Assembly (NCBI GenBank): GCA_015063325.1
Contig: SVUK01000006.1
Coordinates: 140,654 to 204,653, forward strand
Length of the DNA stretch: 64,000 nt
Direction: 5' to 3'
DNA from: Oscillospiraceae bacterium
Lineage (GTDB): Bacteria > Bacillota > Clostridia > Oscillospirales > CAG-272
Shown: positions 44,810 through 50,388 of the stretch, piece after piece
Numbering within the stretch: the stretch's first letter is position 1
How the letters are laid out: the number at the start of each line of letters is the position of its first letter
Translations under genes and position numbers: made by a program
Notes under the pieces: model-generated
Seen by the model: the letters and a program-made list of their open reading frames with translations, nothing else
Told to the model about the DNA's origin: nothing
The model's database searches: none

Positions 44810-45235
44810 ATGCAAATCGCTATTATCGCACATGACTTGAAAAAAGAACTCATCACGCAGTTCTGCATCGCCTATTGCGGTATTTTGAGCAAGCATAAAC
44901 TCTGCGCAACCGGTATTACGGCAAAATATATTTCCGAGGCAACCGGATTGGAAGTGGAAAGTCTCCTGCCCGGTCAGCAGGGCGGCGACCAGCAAATCGC
45001 TTCCCGAATTGCCTACAACGAGATCGATATGCTCCTGTATTTTAAGGATACTCGTCCCGAATCCGATTACAGCGATGTCAAAAAAGAGATTTTGCGGCTT
45101 TGCGACGTTTACAACATCCCGGTTGCAACCAATATTGCAACGGCGGAGATTCTGATCATGGCGCTCGACCGCGGCGATCTTGACTGGCGCGAGATCGTGA
45201 AAGCCGACGCGAAAGGTAACAAAAAGACTTTTTAA
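44810..45235 (+). CDS. mgsA: Methylglyoxal synthase-like protein (divergent active site)
   Basis: IAIIAHDLKK, ATGIT, GGDQQI, LRLCDVYNIPVATNIATAE, ALDRGDLDWRE. Confidence 0.85.
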   Translation: MQIAIIAHDLKKELITQFCIAYCGILSKHKLCATGITAKYISEATGLEVESLLPGQQGGDQQIASRIAYNEIDMLLYFKDTRPESDYSDVKKEILRLCDVYNIPVATNIATAEILIMALDRGDLDWREIVKADAKGNKKTF

Positions 45236-45244
45236 GTTTCCAAT

Positions 45245-45445
45245 GTGAAAAAGACACGTTCCCGGAAGGTCTTTGCGAAAAAGAGACGGATCCCTTGGCT
45301 GAAAGGATCCGGCAAAGCTCCGCGGAATACCACTTTTTTGCCAAATTGCATAAACCCGAAAGAGTGAAACGTTTGGGTGGAACCGTGCGGAATGATCCAC
45401 ACCCCGAACCGACCGAAAAGGTCTGTCGAGGTGTGGATTTTATTT
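45245..45445 (+). ncRNA. T-box riboswitch (Thr) upstream of thrS
   Basis: Stem I AGAGA and GCTGAAAG boxes, candidate specifier ACC at 45329-45331, T-box GGGTGGAACCGTG at 45375-45387, terminator atccacacc/ggtgtggat plus T run. Confidence 0.9.
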
Positions 45446-45522
45446 TTGTAAAAGCTGTATTCATTTTGCAAAAAAACATTCATTTTTGTAAAAACTGTAT
45501 TTATATAAAGGAGAGAACTGCT

Positions 45523-47454
45523 ATGAAAATCAAAATGCAAGGCAAGGAATTGGAGGTCGCGGCGCCAATCACGATTTATGAAGCCGCGCGCGAAGCCGAA
45601 CTCATCTCCCGTGCCGTGATCGGCGCCGAGATCGCCGGCAAAACCGTTGCGCTGACGCAGGAGCTTGCCGAGGGCGACGACGTCAAACTGTTGACCTTTG
45701 CCGACGAAGCCGGCAAACACCTGTTCCGCCATACCGCGTCCCATATTTTGGCGCAGGCAGTCAAACGGCTGTTCCCGAACGCCAAATTGACCATTGGACC
45801 GGCGGTGGAAAACGGATTTTATTACGACATTGATTCGGACGACGCATTTACGCCCGAGGTTTTGAAGAAACTGGAAGACGAGATGAAGAAGATCGTCAAG
45901 GAGAACCTGAAGATCGAGCGCTTTGAACTGCCGCGTGCAGAAGCCGTCAAGCTGATGACCGAGCGCGACGAGCCATATAAAGTACAGCTGATCAATGAAC
46001 TGCCCGAAGGGGAGACAATCAGTTTCTATCGTCAGGGCGAATTTGTCGATCTCTGCGCAGGTCCGCACCTGTTCTCCACGGGCGCTGTCAAGGGGCTGAA
46101 ACTGACGCAATGCACCGGCGCTTACTGGAAGGGCGACCAGAAAAATAAGGTTCTCCAGCGCATCTACGGCGTGGCGTTCCCCTCCAAAGAGGAGCTGAAC
46201 ACCTATCTTGCCGAACAGGAGGAAGCGCTCAAACGCGACCATAACAAACTGGGGCGCGAGCTCGGCTATTTTACCACGGTCGATTTCATCGGTCAAGGCT
46301 TGCCGATCCTGCTTCCCAAAGGTGCGCGTGTGGTACAGCTGTTGCAACGGTGGGTAGAGGACGTGGAGCAAAAGAAGGGCTGTCTGCTCACCAAAACGCC
46401 CTATATGGCAAAGCGCGAACTTTATAAAATCTCCGGTCACTGGGATCATTATTTGGACGGAATGTTTGTCCTCGGCGATCCTGCCGACGAGAGCAAGGAA
46501 TGCTTCGCCCTGCGCCCCATGACCTGCCCGTTCCAATACCAGGTTTATTTGAATAAGAATCGTTCTTACCGCGAGCTTCCCATGCGCCTGACCGAGACGT
46601 CCACGCTCTTCCGCAACGAGGACAGCGGCGAAATGCACGGGCTGATCCGCGTGCGCCAGTTTACCATTTCCGAAGGGCATTATATTCTGCGCCCCGACCA
46701 GCTGGAAGAAGAGTTCCGCGGCTGTTTGGAACTTGCCAAATACTTCCTTGGCACGGTGGGACTGTTGGATAAATGCACCTTCCGCTTCTCGCAATGGGAT
46801 CCGGCAAACCCGAAGAACAAGTATGAGGGCACGAGAGAGCAGTGGGAAGTCGCACAGGCGACCATGGCGCAGATTTTGGACGACCTCGGCGTAGAATACA
46901 CCGTCGGAATCGACGAAGCCGCATTCTACGGTCCGAAGCTGGATATTCAGTACCGCAACGTTTACGGCAAAGAGGATACGCTTGTCACCATTCAGATCGA
47001 TATGCTGCTTGCCGAAAAATTCGGAATGTACTATACCGATAAGGACGGCGAAAAGAAACTGCCGTATATCATTCACCGCACGTCGCTCGGTTGCTACGAG
47101 CGCACGCTTGCCTACCTGATCGAGACCTACGCCGGCGCGTTTCCGCTTTGGCTGGCGCCCGAACAGGTACGCATTCTGCCCATCGGCGACGAGCATATCG
47201 AGTATGCCAAAAAGCTGCAAAAACAGCTTGACGACGCCGGTTTGCGCGTAGAGCTGGACGATAGCTCCAACACCATCGGCTATAAGATCCGCAACGCGCA
47301 AACGCAAAAAATTCCCTATATGCTTGTTATCGGAGCAAAGGAAATGGAAACCGGAACGGTTGCCGTTCGCAACCGCGCAGGGGAAACGGTCACCAAATCG
47401 GTGGACGAATTCCTTGCCGACGCGCTTTTGGAAATTGCCGAAAAGCGGCGGTAA
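45523..47454 (+). CDS. thrS: Threonine--tRNA ligase
   Basis: TGS domain, FRHTASHILAQAV, DLCAGPH, RDHNKLG, RPMTCP, HGLIRVRQFT, AFYGPKLD, IHR. Start 45523 after AAGGAG. Confidence 0.98.
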   Translation: MKIKMQGKELEVAAPITIYEAAREAELISRAVIGAEIAGKTVALTQELAEGDDVKLLTFADEAGKHLFRHTASHILAQAVKRLFPNAKLTIGPAVENGFYYDIDSDDAFTPEVLKKLEDEMKKIVKENLKIERFELPRAEAVKLMTERDEPYKVQLINELPEGETISFYRQGEFVDLCAGPHLFSTGAVKGLKLTQCTGAYWKGDQKNKVLQRIYGVAFPSKEELNTYLAEQEEALKRDHNKLGRELGYFTTVDFIGQGLPILLPKGARVVQLLQRWVEDVEQKKGCLLTKTPYMAKRELYKISGHWDHYLDGMFVLGDPADESKECFALRPMTCPFQYQVYLNKNRSYRELPMRLTETSTLFRNEDSGEMHGLIRVRQFTISEGHYILRPDQLEEEFRGCLELAKYFLGTVGLLDKCTFRFSQWDPANPKNKYEGTREQWEVAQATMAQILDDLGVEYTVGIDEAAFYGPKLDIQYRNVYGKEDTLVTIQIDMLLAEKFGMYYTDKDGEKKLPYIIHRTSLGCYERTLAYLIETYAGAFPLWLAPEQVRILPIGDEHIEYAKKLQKQLDDAGLRVELDDSSNTIGYKIRNAQTQKIPYMLVIGAKEMETGTVAVRNRAGETVTKSVDEFLADALLEIAEKRR

Positions 47455-47462
47455 AATTACTA

Positions 47463-47510
47463 AAACAAGCAGAGCCGACCTGCGAGGCAGGTCGGCTCTG
47501 CTTGTTTTTA
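47463..47510. terminator. Bidirectional terminator after thrS
   Basis: aaaacaagcagagccgacctgc-ga-ggcaggtcggctctgcttgtttt long inverted repeat. Confidence 0.9.
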
Positions 47511-47526
47511 TCAAAAGGGATTCTTG

Positions 47527-47961
47527 TCAAAACTCCCAAAAACTCGTTCCGGTTTCGGGGTCGCGTTTTCTGCCGATCTTGCCGCCGGTCACCGGGCGCA
47601 GTTCGATTTCGGCGGTGTAGAGCACTGTGACCGATTTGATATGTCCGCCTGCCATTTGGTGCTTTCCGTTTTCCAAGTAGGCAAAGGCGCCGTGCGTATG
47701 GTGGGAGAGAGATTCGTCGGATTCGATCGTCACGCTTCCGTTCAGCGAGACCAGTTCCAGCATTCCCGAAAGTTCACGGGTTTCAAAGGTGCGGCTTTCC
47801 GGCAAAAAGGTTTGAATTTCGGCGCTTTTGCAACCGCCGATACCCGAAAAAATTGCCGATTGGATGTTTTCGCGCCGGCATACCTCCAGAATACCGCCGA
47901 TGATCTCGTCATCTTTGTCCATGCGGAGATAATAGGTGTTGTCAAATTTTCTGTAGTCCAT
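47527..47961 (-). CDS. PPC / DUF296 domain protein
   Basis: YYLRMDKDDEI, SGIGG, ELVSLNGSV, HTHGAF, GGHI..VTV.YTAEI. Confidence 0.85.
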   Translation of the reverse strand: MDYRKFDNTYYLRMDKDDEIIGGILEVCRRENIQSAIFSGIGGCKSAEIQTFLPESRTFETRELSGMLELVSLNGSVTIESDESLSHHTHGAFAYLENGKHQMAGGHIKSVTVLYTAEIELRPVTGGKIGRKRDPETGTSFWEF

Positions 47962-47965
47962 TTTT

Positions 47966-48050
47966 ACCCCTTTTTTTATGTTTTTTTATGTTTTACAGCA
48001 TTTTACGGCATTTTACGGTTTTTTACGGCATTTACATGTTTTTACAGTTC
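47966..48050 (-). repeat. 10-bp-period tandem repeat (TTTTACGGCA on +) continuing from the phosphorylase stop codon
   Basis: ttttacagca ttttacggca ttttacggtt ttttacggca tttacatgtt tttacag. Confidence 0.9.
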
Positions 48051-48815
48051 TTTCACGGCTTCTATGCAAAGCTCCAGCGCGACGTTGATCGAATCGGCGC
48101 CCCAGTCGCGCTCGTCATAGCGTTCAACGTCGGCAAGTGTGTCGGCGGTGTAGAGCAGTTCGCCAAAGGTCGCGCCGCGGAAGTGCGCGCAAGCCGCTAA
48201 AGCGGCGCATTCCATTTCCACTGCGGCACAGCCCTCTTCTTTGCGGTATGCCACCATTTCTTTGGTCTCGCGAAAGAATCCGTCGGTCGTCCATGTCGTC
48301 ACCTCTGTAAAGGGAAGCCCGCGGTTTTTCAGTGCTTTCCGAATGGCGGCGCGTGCTGTTTCGGGAATTTCCACGTAACGGTCGGGCGGCAGATAATGAT
48401 AGGATGTTCCCTCGTCTCTCAATGCGCGCGAGGGGATCAAAAATCGATTTTCGTCAAACTTTTCCAAAACGCCGCAGGAGCCGCAGGAAATGATTTTCCG
48501 GGCGCCGTAGGCAATCAGCCAGTCCAGAATTTGTACCGCGGCAGGCGCGCCAACAGGTGCTTGTACAAGGGCAATTTGCTTGCCGTCCGCCTCTGTGGTA
48601 TATACGGGATATTCTTTGGTGATCGAAACGAATTTGCCGGCGATTTTTGCGCCGTGCGCCTTTGCATAATCGTCCACCGCCTCGCCCAAAAAGGCGAAGA
48701 CTGCACGCTCGGGCAGGCGCAGGGACAAAAGGTGCCGTTCGTGGTCAGGTTGAATGACCGCCGATGGGGAAGAATCGTATTCCAAAATTGGAAGTTCGTG
48801 CTTTGTAATGCTCAT
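48042..48815 (-). CDS. Nucleoside phosphorylase (PNP/UDP family)
   Basis: APVGAPAA, SCGSCG, ALRDEGTSYHY, WTTDGFFRET, VEMECAALAA. Confidence 0.9.
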   Translation of the reverse strand: MSITKHELPILEYDSSPSAVIQPDHERHLLSLRLPERAVFAFLGEAVDDYAKAHGAKIAGKFVSITKEYPVYTTEADGKQIALVQAPVGAPAAVQILDWLIAYGARKIISCGSCGVLEKFDENRFLIPSRALRDEGTSYHYLPPDRYVEIPETARAAIRKALKNRGLPFTEVTTWTTDGFFRETKEMVAYRKEEGCAAVEMECAALAACAHFRGATFGELLYTADTLADVERYDERDWGADSINVALELCIEAVKEL

Positions 48816-48827
48816 CGTAACCTCTTT

Positions 48828-49352
48828 TCAAATGGTGATCCAATAGCGCTGTTCCACAACGCCCTCGGAGTTGACGATCTCGTTTTCCATAATGCCGCCG
48901 TTCTTTTGAATACACTTTGCCGAGGCAAGATTATCTTTGTCACATGTGATCAAAACCTTGTCGATTCCCAGTTTTTTGCATTCCGACAGAGCAAGCCGGA
49001 GCAGTTCGGTTCCGTAGCCTTTTCCGCGTTCCGAAGGACGAATACCATCGCCGATATGACCGCCCTCGCGTAACAGGAAATCGTTCAGGTAATGGCGGAT
49101 GTTGACCGCGCCCAAAAGGCGATTTCGGTCAATGTCCAAGAGGAAAAAGACCGAATCGGGCACCTTATCGCCCTCGGCGGTTTGGTGTTCCAAATGCGCA
49201 AGATAAAAGTCAAAATCGCGGTAATCGTTTTTGAAAATTGCCCAGGGGGAGTGGTTGGTGCCGTTGGTTTCCCAATCGGCTCGCCACTCGGCAAGCATTT
49301 CGCCCAACTGCGTTTCGTATGCTTTTGATAGTTTGATCAATTTCAGGTTCAT
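48828..49352 (-). CDS. GNAT-family N-acetyltransferase
   Basis: NIRHYLN..L..GGHIGDGIRPSERGKGYGT, LITCDKDNLASAKCI.KNGG. Confidence 0.92.
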   Translation of the reverse strand: MNLKLIKLSKAYETQLGEMLAEWRADWETNGTNHSPWAIFKNDYRDFDFYLAHLEHQTAEGDKVPDSVFFLLDIDRNRLLGAVNIRHYLNDFLLREGGHIGDGIRPSERGKGYGTELLRLALSECKKLGIDKVLITCDKDNLASAKCIQKNGGIMENEIVNSEGVVEQRYWITI

Positions 49353-49371
49353 GATAAACTCTCTATTGCTT

Positions 49372-49830
49372 TTATTTGTGTTCTTCCATCCATTTTTTCA
49401 GAACGGGACGAATGGGGGGTGAGATTTCGGAAAGGTCAATTTCTTCGAGAGAAAAGAAGCGCAATTCTTCCATTTCTCCGTCTGCCGGGTGGGGAATACC
49501 GTGCCATTTTTTGCAAATAAATATAAGTTCAAAATTGGAGACTTCGTCGCCGTTTGGATAGACGTAATGGGCTTCTGGACCGGAATTGACGAAGAAAAAT
49601 TGCAGCTCTTCGGCAATCAGACCCATTTCTTCAAAGAGCTCTCGTTTGGCGCAGTCCTCAACGCGCTCATCAATCTCAAGAGAACCGCCGGAATATCCCC
49701 ATTTGTGGTTGTCAGAACGCTTTCCTAATAATACGCGTCCGTGTTCGTCAAGACAAATAATACTTGCCGCGCATTGGATGAGCGTTCGATGTCCCACGAG
49801 TTTTCGCATTTCCTGCATATATCCTGTCAT
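49372..49830 (-). CDS. NUDIX hydrolase
   Basis: Nudix box GGSLEIDERVEDCAKRELFEEMG; YPNGDEV. Confidence 0.92.
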   Translation of the reverse strand: MTGYMQEMRKLVGHRTLIQCAASIICLDEHGRVLLGKRSDNHKWGYSGGSLEIDERVEDCAKRELFEEMGLIAEELQFFFVNSGPEAHYVYPNGDEVSNFELIFICKKWHGIPHPADGEMEELRFFSLEEIDLSEISPPIRPVLKKWMEEHK

Positions 49831-49899
49831 CACTGTTTCTCCGTATCTTTTTTGTCAGTATAACATAAAAATGTGATTTTTTCAATCTTTGGCAAGGAA

Positions 49900-50134
49900 A
49901 AAGCCCCCGACGGGGCAAGAGACGAGTGATATTGCCGCTTTCAGCGGCAGTTTACACAGATCAGCCCACAGGGCTGTATCTTATCACGCCGTAGGCACGG
50001 ATATCATCAATTCCGCAGGAATTGTATCTCATCATTGCGAAAGCAAAAATGCACCTTCGGTGATGAGAGCATGCTGACGCGTGATGATATACCCCTTGTG
50101 GGGAATGATATGCTATTGCTTTCGCAATGAATAC
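49900..50134. repeat. Nested multi-hairpin palindromic element (REP-like or structured ncRNA) 3' of tRNA-Arg
   Basis: At least eight short hairpins joined by TATC(T)CATCA / TGATGA(T/G)A linkers that pair with one another (50027-34 with 50061-68; 50001-09 with 50082-90). Confidence 0.75.
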
Positions 50135-50168
50135 AAAAAGTCCAAGCCGATTGGCTTGGACTTTTTGT
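50133..50168 (-). terminator. Terminator after tRNA-Arg
   Basis: 16-bp perfect inverted repeat acaaaaagtccaagcc-gatt-ggcttggactttttgt. Confidence 0.9.
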
Positions 50169-50244
50169 GGCGCGGCGTAAGGGATTCGAACCCCCGACCT
50201 TTTGGTTCGTAGCCAAACACTCTATCCAGCTGAGCTAACGCCGC
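50168..50244 (-). tRNA. tRNA-Arg (anticodon ACG), CCA encoded
   Basis: gcggcgttagctcagctggatagagtgtttggctACGaaccaaaaggtcgggggttcgaatcccttacgccgcgcca folds as a 77-nt cloverleaf. Confidence 0.98.
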
Positions 50245-50327: not shown

Positions 50328-50388
50328 AAAAAACAGGAACGAAAAAACGAAAAAACGAAAAAACGAAGAAACGAAGAAACGAAGAAAT
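50328..50388. repeat. 8-bp-period microsatellite (ACGAAAAA / ACGAAGAA) downstream of hslO
   Basis: acgaaaaa x3 then acgaagaa x3. Confidence 0.9.

Follow-up and report, generated by a model that had tools for sequence, protein, structure and literature searches.

The stretch of DNA analysed here, called the window, is 64,000 nt of contig SVUK01000006.1 (assembly GCA_015063325.1, forward-strand positions 140,654 to 204,653) from an Oscillospiraceae bacterium (CAG-272) whose 1.68-Mb genome is 95.6% complete. Its subject is an array of short hairpins at 49960..50134, beside the tRNA-Arg(ACG) gene (50168..50244, minus strand; ARAGORN, Rfam tRNA 65 bits). The tRNA gene has its own promoter, TTGACA-17-TAGAAT (50291-50263, minus strand; promoter scan), and a bidirectional terminator stands at its junction with the array, a perfectly symmetric A5-hairpin-T5 at 50133..50168 with arms at 50133-48 and 50153-68. 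Read in the direction of the tRNA, the hairpins sit between this terminator and the next promoter, a strong TTGAAA-17-TATACT with TG (49857..49885, minus strand; promoter scan) that serves a co-directional block of four genes (47527..49833, minus strand) assigned by Pfam as NUDIX (49372-49833), GNAT (48828-49352), PNP_UDP_1 phosphorylase (48042-48815; PNP below) and PCC-domain protein (47527-47961). The block ends against the convergent thrS gene. A hairpin, GCCCCGTCGGGGGC, followed by T5 is terminator-like on the tRNA-sense strand at 49898..49916 (minus strand; terminator scan). The sequence comparisons that follow establish 49960-50134 as a full-length, diverged, single copy of an undescribed subfamily of Gut-1-like arrays of gut and rumen Oscillospirales.

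An earlier note on this DNA had described a single nested element of about 230 nt at 49900-50134. All nine hairpins that it listed are true inverted repeats in an inverted-repeat check, the three linker pairs that it drew are exact complements (50027-34 with 50061-68, 50001-09 with 50082-90, and 49982-86 with 50106-10), and it was right that no real open reading frame (ORF) explains the region, as the two ORFs overlapping the hairpins (62 and 69 aa, with TTG starts, one of them entering the tRNA) are not credible genes. A 251-nt stretch folds at -92.8 kcal/mol on the plus strand and -92.0 on the minus strand, where dinucleotide shuffles give about -68 ± 5 (z = -5.08 and -4.55, respectively), and 0 of 200 shuffles were as stable. 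The hairpin cluster is therefore genuine as described, but it is not one element: the family profile introduced below covers only 49960-50131, and 49900-49958 is different, so that the interval is a composite of two array types and a promoter module. The outer part, 49900-49958, comprises a surviving Gut-1 (GTGATAT) unit, the hairpin with T5 and a shared promoter module. The leftover unit of the classic Gut-1 type (49924..49952, minus strand), in which TGCCGCTGAAAGCGGCA runs into ATATCAC, resembles the second half of the true Gut-1 arrays of the same genome, with a match at C21:78349-78376, and aligns with the arrays behind tRNA-Ser, tRNA-His and tRNA-Gln. Two of the listed hairpins fall in this part, GCCCC/GGGGC at 49903-16 and TGCCGCT/AGCGGCA at 49933-49.

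The array proper (49960..50134) is laid out as three units of a hairpin plus a TGTATATCATCA-type word, a centre, three units of a TGATGATATAC-type word plus a hairpin, and a terminal hairpin. The left half (49962..50034, plus strand) has hairpins at 49962-76, 49988-96 (only 3 bp) and 50008-24, and the words TGTATCTTATCA (49975-86), CGGATATCATCA (49998-50009) and TGTATCTCATCA (50023-34). The centre, TCATTGCGAAAGCAA (50032..50046), is a 15-nt inverted repeat that takes in the hairpin at 50035-46 and is 100% complementary to 50116-50130. In the right half (50052..50130, plus strand) the hairpins lie at 50052-62, at about 50070-83 (CATGC/GCGTG with one G-T pair, additional to the nine listed earlier) and at 50092-103, with the words TGATGAGA (50061-68), TGATGATAT (50082-90) and ATGATATGC (about 50104-12), and the terminal hairpin, ATTGCTTTCGCAAT, occupies 50115-28 on the plus strand.

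The TGATGATAT-word hairpin array is a family defined in the present analysis, through a profile of 37 complete copies that have three units in either half. Positions 7-183 of the 184 in this profile (177/184) match 49960-50131 of the window with 86.2 bits (E 1.3e-24, nhmmer), and five of the six words in the window copy deviate from the consensus. As the match is full-length yet its score of 86 bits falls below the 100-175 bits of the other full-length copies, the window copy is complete but eroded. The proposal that it is a modular repeat of hairpin and linker units is borne out by homologues in many metagenome-assembled genomes (MAGs) from gut and rumen: BLAST finds them in 27 of 61 relatives, many times over in some, and a 35-mer taken from the right end has exact matches in more than 120 contigs from Acutalibacteraceae, Oscillospiraceae and other Clostridia MAGs of ruminant and human gut. 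The array is the only copy in its own genome, where neither BLAST nor the profile search matched anything else, but it is multi-copy in relatives (up to 10-20 copies per genome in some genera, such as that of genome G049), with a strong tRNA association. Viral contigs gave only two exact matches, both at contig edges, and a phage feature was rejected on this ground.

The most frequent build of the family has three left and three right words and a total length of 177-200 nt. Words of 8-12 nt are constant between the hairpins, TGTATATCATCA joining those of the left half and TGATGATATACA those of the right, and the stems are free to vary yet perfectly paired; units shuffle between slots. On the plus strand of the window the consensus left half reads ATC, hairpin, TGTATATCATCA, hairpin, TGCATATCATCA, hairpin, TGTATATCATCA, and is followed by a centre beginning TTGCGAAAG. 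The right half reads hairpin, TGATGATATACA, hairpin, TGATGAGATACA, hairpin, TGATGATATRCC and the terminal hairpin ATTGCTTTCGCAATGG, after which come AT, an A7 tract, the terminator hairpin, T6, GG and the tRNA gene on the opposite strand. The dyad symmetry extends to the very ends of the array (ATC-hairpin ... hairpin-GAT), where the terminator's own A/T tracts would mask a target-site duplication of the kind expected for a MITE or transposon-end derivative.

Any one slot is filled by 16-25 different stem sequences across the 37 copies, yet 1707 of 1732 stem pairs (98.6%) are Watson-Crick, so the hairpin stems show strong compensatory variation and selection for perfect local pairing. The exceptions are 13 G-T and 12 A-C pairs, and neither strand is thus favoured. 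Loops of the G...A kind (GAA, GCA, GAAA and similar) account for ~82% of left-half loops on the plus strand; in the right half the complements of the loops are G...A in ~48%, on the minus strand, and the opposite-strand figure is ~1%. This flip in loop polarity indicates that the halves are inverted copies of one kind of unit, with two-fold symmetry of the duplex. Taken together, the statistics of stems and loops argue against a single functional RNA strand.

The covariation analysis separated two kinds of long-range pairing. A central stem bearing side hairpins, as envisaged in the earlier note, is preferred by RNAfold, but the word variants do not covary in it, being no better matched in the nested register than in others (10.59 vs 10.66 of 12 matches). 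Complementarity between words of opposite halves is built into the array, and where the words vary they may fail to pair, as in middle-left TGCATATCATCA, which mismatches middle-right TGATGAGATACA. The nested stem also crosses a second pairing that does covary, as do the local stems. The centre and the terminator-proximal unit are complementary over 9-15 bp at a distance of ~90-98 nt in at least 14 of 17 arrays and in every word type, with quite different sequences in different arrays (GATGTTTGCC/GGCAAACATC, TAAGTGTTCCGC/GCGGAACACTTA, GAAGTCGCCCG/CGGGCGACTTC and TTATATTCGCC/GGCGAATATAA); shuffled sequences seldom exceed 8-9 bp. The corresponding pair in the window, TCATTGCGAAAGCAA at 50032-46 with TTGCTTTCGCAATGA at 50116-30, matches at 15 of 15 positions and could close the terminator-proximal half into a ~98-nt domain with three hairpins. 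This pairing suggests that some single-stranded state matters.

Placement was counted for 110 family copies with sufficient flank. A tRNA lies within 60 nt in 63 of these, always at its 3' end and in the identical relative orientation, and 25 anticodons are represented, which bears out the association with tRNA genes. Of the other 45 copies, 30 carry GG (the complement of CCA) after the T-run, and in about 20 of those 30 the sequence goes on to agree with a tRNA or tmRNA 3' end for 10-25 nt and then departs from it, these being tmRNA ends or truncated tRNA 3' fragments. The window copy has the same placement, with its TGATGATAT half nearest the bidirectional terminator of tRNA-Arg(ACG). The stem of that terminator, GTCCAAGCC...GGCTTGGAC (50133-50168), is nearly identical to the one beside a family copy in genome G058, and elsewhere the same terminator hairpin recurs beside arrays at different tRNAs, such as TTCGACAAGTCGAAACTTGTCGAA (10 copies) and TCGACAGGTCGAAACCTGTCGA (11 copies), from which it follows that the repeated module includes the terminator. 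The module thus runs from the tRNA or tmRNA 3' end through the A-tract/hairpin/T-tract bidirectional terminator, the terminal hairpin and three word-plus-hairpin units to the centre complementary to the terminal hairpin, and on through three inverted hairpin-plus-word units, often to the -35 of an outward promoter. Outward promoter-like sites occur in 48% of flanks and in 25% of shuffles, and in 17 copies the -35 abuts the array end; inward sites were found in 34% of the array flanks vs 25% of shuffles, with no positional peak. In the window, the NUDIX promoter shares ~20 identical nt (TCACATTTTTATGTTATA) with the one that follows this genome's tRNA-Ser array.

Of the 43 tRNA and tmRNA genes in the window's own genome, about 8 precede some array of the Gut-1-like kind. 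Most tRNA terminators at these 43 loci, with or without an array, are long, perfectly symmetric A-tract/stem/T-tract palindromes and hence bidirectional. The tRNA-Leu(CAA) and tmRNA genes (C17:206285 onward and C17:309855 downward) have near-identical terminators (AAAATCCCGCGC.../AAAATCCCACGCG...) and share a run of TTTTCAC(T) words, which makes the terminator-plus-array module common to two different stable-RNA genes. A second recurrent module stands beside many arrays, GGCGAYAAAAAAGATATTTTT...GTACGGACTTGAACTCACGTACC with a T-loop-like TTCAAGT/TTCGAAC motif; it lies in the far flank at loci L051, L052, L053, L059, L066, L078 and L094, occurs also at L225, and may be a decayed tRNA-like piece.

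In a scan against Rfam at permissive thresholds only the tRNA passes, so that no Rfam family accounts for the array; the best other match is to Gut-1 (RF01706) at 50041-50116, with 22 bits and E 0.27 against a cut-off of 50. Archaeal C/D-box matches also arose from the UGAUGA words, and a k-turn or C/D-box reading was rejected, the words being fully Watson-Crick complementary between the halves. Four other loci in the same genome do pass the Gut-1 threshold (55-62 bits), each paired with a weaker match on the opposite strand. They lie directly behind the terminators of tRNA-His, tRNA-Ser(GGA), tRNA-Gln and tRNA-Thr, in the order terminator, hairpin-plus-GTGATAT units, centre, ATATCAC-plus-hairpin units, promoter. 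The window array resembles these in its runs of short GC-rich hairpins split by a constant purine-rich word (GUGAAAU/GUGAUAU in Gut-1, UGAUGAUAU in the window), in its position behind a tRNA terminator, in its halves built of a word and of its complement, in the complementarity of head and centre and in the promoter that follows; one of the Gut-1 arrays, in addition, precedes a gene of the PF05635 family. It differs in that its word is longer and of another sequence (UGAUGAKAU vs the GUGAAAU type), in that its halves are inside-out, with complement-word then word on either strand where Gut-1 has word then complement-word, and in that the PF05635 proteins of TGATGATAT arrays form a separate clade. 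Gut-1 was described from human gut metagenomes as a likely non-coding RNA (ncRNA) (Weinberg et al. 2010, Genome Biol 11:R31, PMC2864571), and that description is without a tRNA link, a second half or a protein partner. Nothing on function, tRNA linkage, context or protein partner was found for Gut-1-like arrays in the literature.

Within 5.5 kb of 92 arrays the only recurrent protein family is one of ~115 aa that matches PF05635, and no recombinase, transposase, partition, replication or integrase gene recurs there. PF05635 is the Avd-like family of diversity-generating retroelements and 23S rRNA intervening sequences (PMC10053308). A median of 31 nt separates the gene from the array, and its direction is always away from the tRNA, as is that of the far-side gene in 71 of 90 cases; the other far-side neighbours are unrelated (XRE-TPR, thioesterase-like, sugar isomerase-like, MATE, CPBP and others), and with a PF05635 neighbour in ~12% of copies the protein is not strictly family-defining. 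The products of the 13 PF05635 genes directly behind TGATGATAT arrays form one clade with 100/100 support, and on a tree of 26 PF05635 proteins with eight array words no more than the minimum of 7 word changes is needed, a value reached in 0 of 200 shuffles. The matching clade is carried by the array-rich genomes G049 and G058. It is absent beside the window array, whose neighbours are NUDIX, GNAT and PNP, and from the rest of that genome: the two PF05635 proteins found there, one encoded behind the tRNA-His GTGATAT array and the other behind an AGTGAA-word array at tmRNA, reach 50% and 39% identity with the TGATGATAT clade and lie outside it. The resemblance to 23S intervening sequences and Avd lies in a four-helix bundle of the same family in or beside a stable-RNA gene, with extensive inverted repeats, whereas the gene hosting the arrays is a tRNA or tmRNA and is uninterrupted, no reverse transcriptase is linked, and the window copy has no PF05635 gene at all.

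Two observations on PF05635 genes stand apart from the TGATGATAT family. At the tmRNA of the window's own genome (C17:309336-310222, locus L168) the PF05635 gene follows the terminator and an AGTGAA/TTCACT-word array and has behind it GGGTTCTGATTCCCATCATCTGAAAC, which is a second, decayed copy of the tmRNA 3' end; the locus has the look of a ~0.7-kb integrated cassette without a recombinase. Across the order, PF05635 genes are common, 69 of 151 genomes having them and single genomes having as many as 9; at about one third of the 29 loci inspected (L210-L238) a tRNA and a mirrored word array immediately precede the gene, the words being GTGATAT, AATGATG, GTGAAGT, GTGATGC/T or AATGAAG.

The four genes behind the window array belong to the same event as the array. 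In the closest relative, G064 (Hsp33 87% identical), the order is Hsp33, tRNA-Arg(ACG), terminator, a 190-nt spacer and the convergent thrS; the nucleotides are 85.6% identical to those of the window as far as the thrS stop codon, and the alignment is good again through the tRNA. Since G064 lacks both the array and the NUDIX/GNAT/PNP/PCC genes while its flanks are conserved, array and genes constitute one indel of ~2.65 kb (47457-50134, between thrS and tRNA-Arg). The NUDIX gene is found in only 3 of 41 genomes of the genus. In G004 its homologue also stands directly behind a TGATGATAT array, there after tRNA-Ala(GGC), and is preceded by a homologous promoter. The earlier suggestion that the array goes with the gene block is supported by this second occurrence and by the joint absence from G064, and the occurrence at another tRNA favours gain of an array-fronted islet in the window's own genome. 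The 190-nt spacer of G064 holds a possible decayed piece of an array (GCAAACATCACTTATAAC). In the genus of G049, a comparison of filled and empty sites yielded no clean pair, the tRNA segment being inverted in the informative relatives. As to the remainder of the locus, thrS (45295-47454, plus strand) has tRNA-synt_2b, HGTP_anticodon and tRNA_SAD domains, and a 760-aa ORF antisense to it (45232-47514, minus strand), which has no Pfam match, is a shadow ORF. On the other side, a tandem A-rich repeat, three copies of AACGAAAAA then three of AACGAAGAA, lies at 50336-50386 between the Hsp33 stop codon and the tRNA-Arg promoter.

The reading that we favour, with a probability of roughly 45%, is that the array acts on DNA rather than as an RNA from one strand. 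It would be a two-fold-symmetric assembly site on DNA, its repeated word being read by the matching clade of PF05635 (Avd-like four-helix-bundle) protein, and it would mark the border, on the tRNA side, of the small accessory-gene islets that build up at the 3' ends of tRNA genes. Clusters of plasmid iterons, parC sites and integrase att arms offer a parallel, having several 8-12-bp words at ~22-25 bp spacing, arranged as two groups of opposite orientation beside a promoter or recombination core. In the known clusters, by contrast, the spacers do not form perfect palindromes, and the arrays have no linked gene for partition, replication or an integrase. Its words being eroded and the matching clade of PF05635 being missing from its genome, the window copy is most likely an orphaned remnant brought in together with the NUDIX/GNAT/PNP/PCC islet, and today it probably serves as a spacer or insulator between the tRNA-Arg terminator and the NUDIX promoter and as little more.

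Several results weigh against this reading. A plain double-stranded DNA site leaves unexplained both the perfect-palindrome spacers and the pairing of the centre with the terminal hairpin, features which point to a single-stranded state, either single-stranded DNA (ssDNA) or RNA. On the plus strand the loops are of stable RNA types, GNA/GNRA on the left and UNAC/UUCG on the right, and that strand ends in a good terminator. Some 85-90% of copies have no PF05635 neighbour, and arrays are also kept by genomes of at least 95% completeness in which the matching clade is absent (G000, G015), which shows that an array can persist without the protein; the match of word type and protein clade could be mere co-inheritance of a linked array and gene. 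Finally, the 64-kb window holds no duplicate of the tRNA-Arg 3' end that would flank the islet at its far border or serve as an att scar, and gain in the window genome, as opposed to loss in G064, is not proven.

The main rival is a structured small RNA (sRNA) on the plus strand of the window, antisense to the tRNA and ending at the shared terminator, whose hairpins would present the single-stranded word to a protein or RNA. The strong fold (z -5.1), the heavy compensatory variation in the stems, the loop types, the intrinsic terminator at the 3' end, the centre-to-terminal pairing that covaries across families and the published classing of Gut-1 as a likely ncRNA (PMC2864571) are all in keeping with such a molecule. 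It is nevertheless an unlikely account: the 1732 stem pairs show no G-U excess, the flip in loop polarity means that one strand sees two kinds of unit, no positioned promoter lies upstream of the arrays, transcription in the tRNA-sense direction would find the array between a terminator and the next promoter, and no Rfam family reaches threshold.

Rather less likely again is an arm region of a non-autonomous integrative element, the array forming the att side of islets in tRNA and tmRNA genes, with the recombinase supplied in trans and the words acting as arm-type or accessory-factor sites. The fixed orientation at the 3' ends of tmRNA and of so many tRNAs would fit, as would the reuse of one terminator with the array at different tRNAs, the decayed tmRNA 3' duplicate after the PF05635 cassette of the window's own genome, the indel of array and four genes relative to G064, and the truncated tRNA 3' fragments that at least 15 copies abut, which are expected of ends displaced by later insertion. 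The same breadth, 25 different tRNAs, is not expected of a site-specific integrase, however, and known att arms are not made of perfect mini-hairpins; the lack of a recurrent recombinase family around the 92 arrays, of a tRNA-Arg 3' duplicate in the window and of a clean filled-and-empty pair also tells against it.

The constant position between a terminator and the next promoter would suit a passive buffer of transcription or topology with no dedicated protein, in which the hairpins stop tRNA read-through and shield the following promoter and are kept uniform by inter-copy recombination, in the manner of BIME or REP (repetitive extragenic palindromic) sequences. The extra hairpin with T5 ahead of the NUDIX promoter and the slot-to-slot shuffling of units, which is expected of recombination at identical words, agree with this. 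A buffer of this sort leaves unexplained the strictly conserved words, the inverted word order of the two halves, the tracking of PF05635 clade by word type and the conserved head-to-centre complementarity, and most tRNA loci of the genome do without an array; it is a somewhat poorer candidate than the integrative arm. The likeness to REP, BIME and REPIN elements of proteobacteria (intergenic hairpin modules in both orientations, mosaics, multi-copy in some genomes) speaks for the original suggestion of an ssDNA element mobilised by a RAYT/IS200-family HUH transposase, and G049 and G058 do encode Y1 transposases, but this proposal is largely refuted and very improbable: the array is single-copy here, PF01797 (Y1 transposase) is absent from the window's own genome and from 5 of the 7 other genomes with arrays, no Y1 gene of G049 adjoins an array, a REP has a conserved palindrome and variable flanks where the arrays have variable stems and constant linkers with no RAYT gene, and the strict, fixed-orientation placement at tRNA and tmRNA 3' ends is unlike that of REPs.

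The DNA-site reading with an islet edge can be carried further, into a doubtful scheme for the whole module. The copy of a tRNA or tmRNA 3' end, the terminator, the array and the outward promoter might together be the cis-acting end of a previously unrecognised gene-cassette system that has no recombinase of its own and stacks islets at stable-RNA 3' ends, with PF05635 as its word-specific nucleic-acid-binding factor; the window copy would then be the spent front end that delivered the NUDIX/GNAT/PNP/PCC genes. The logic of such a system, if true, would explain the occurrence of the PF05635 family inside 23S rRNA intervening sequences as well.

Since its entry into Rfam in 2010, Gut-1 has lacked an assigned organism, context or function. 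A sister subfamily and the true Gut-1 arrays are now tied to a precise address, after tRNA and tmRNA terminators and before the next promoter, and likewise to the borders of small islets of accessory genes and to a single recurring partner, the PF05635/Avd-like protein, whose clade follows the word. Two long-standing unknowns, the Gut-1 motif and the free-standing 23S rRNA intervening sequence proteins, thereby come down to a single question, namely whether the protein binds the word. As an eroded orphan, the window copy has its chief value as a dated example of an array-fronted islet, and the findings suggest a route by which genes could be added at the tRNA loci of gut Clostridia with no linked integrase.

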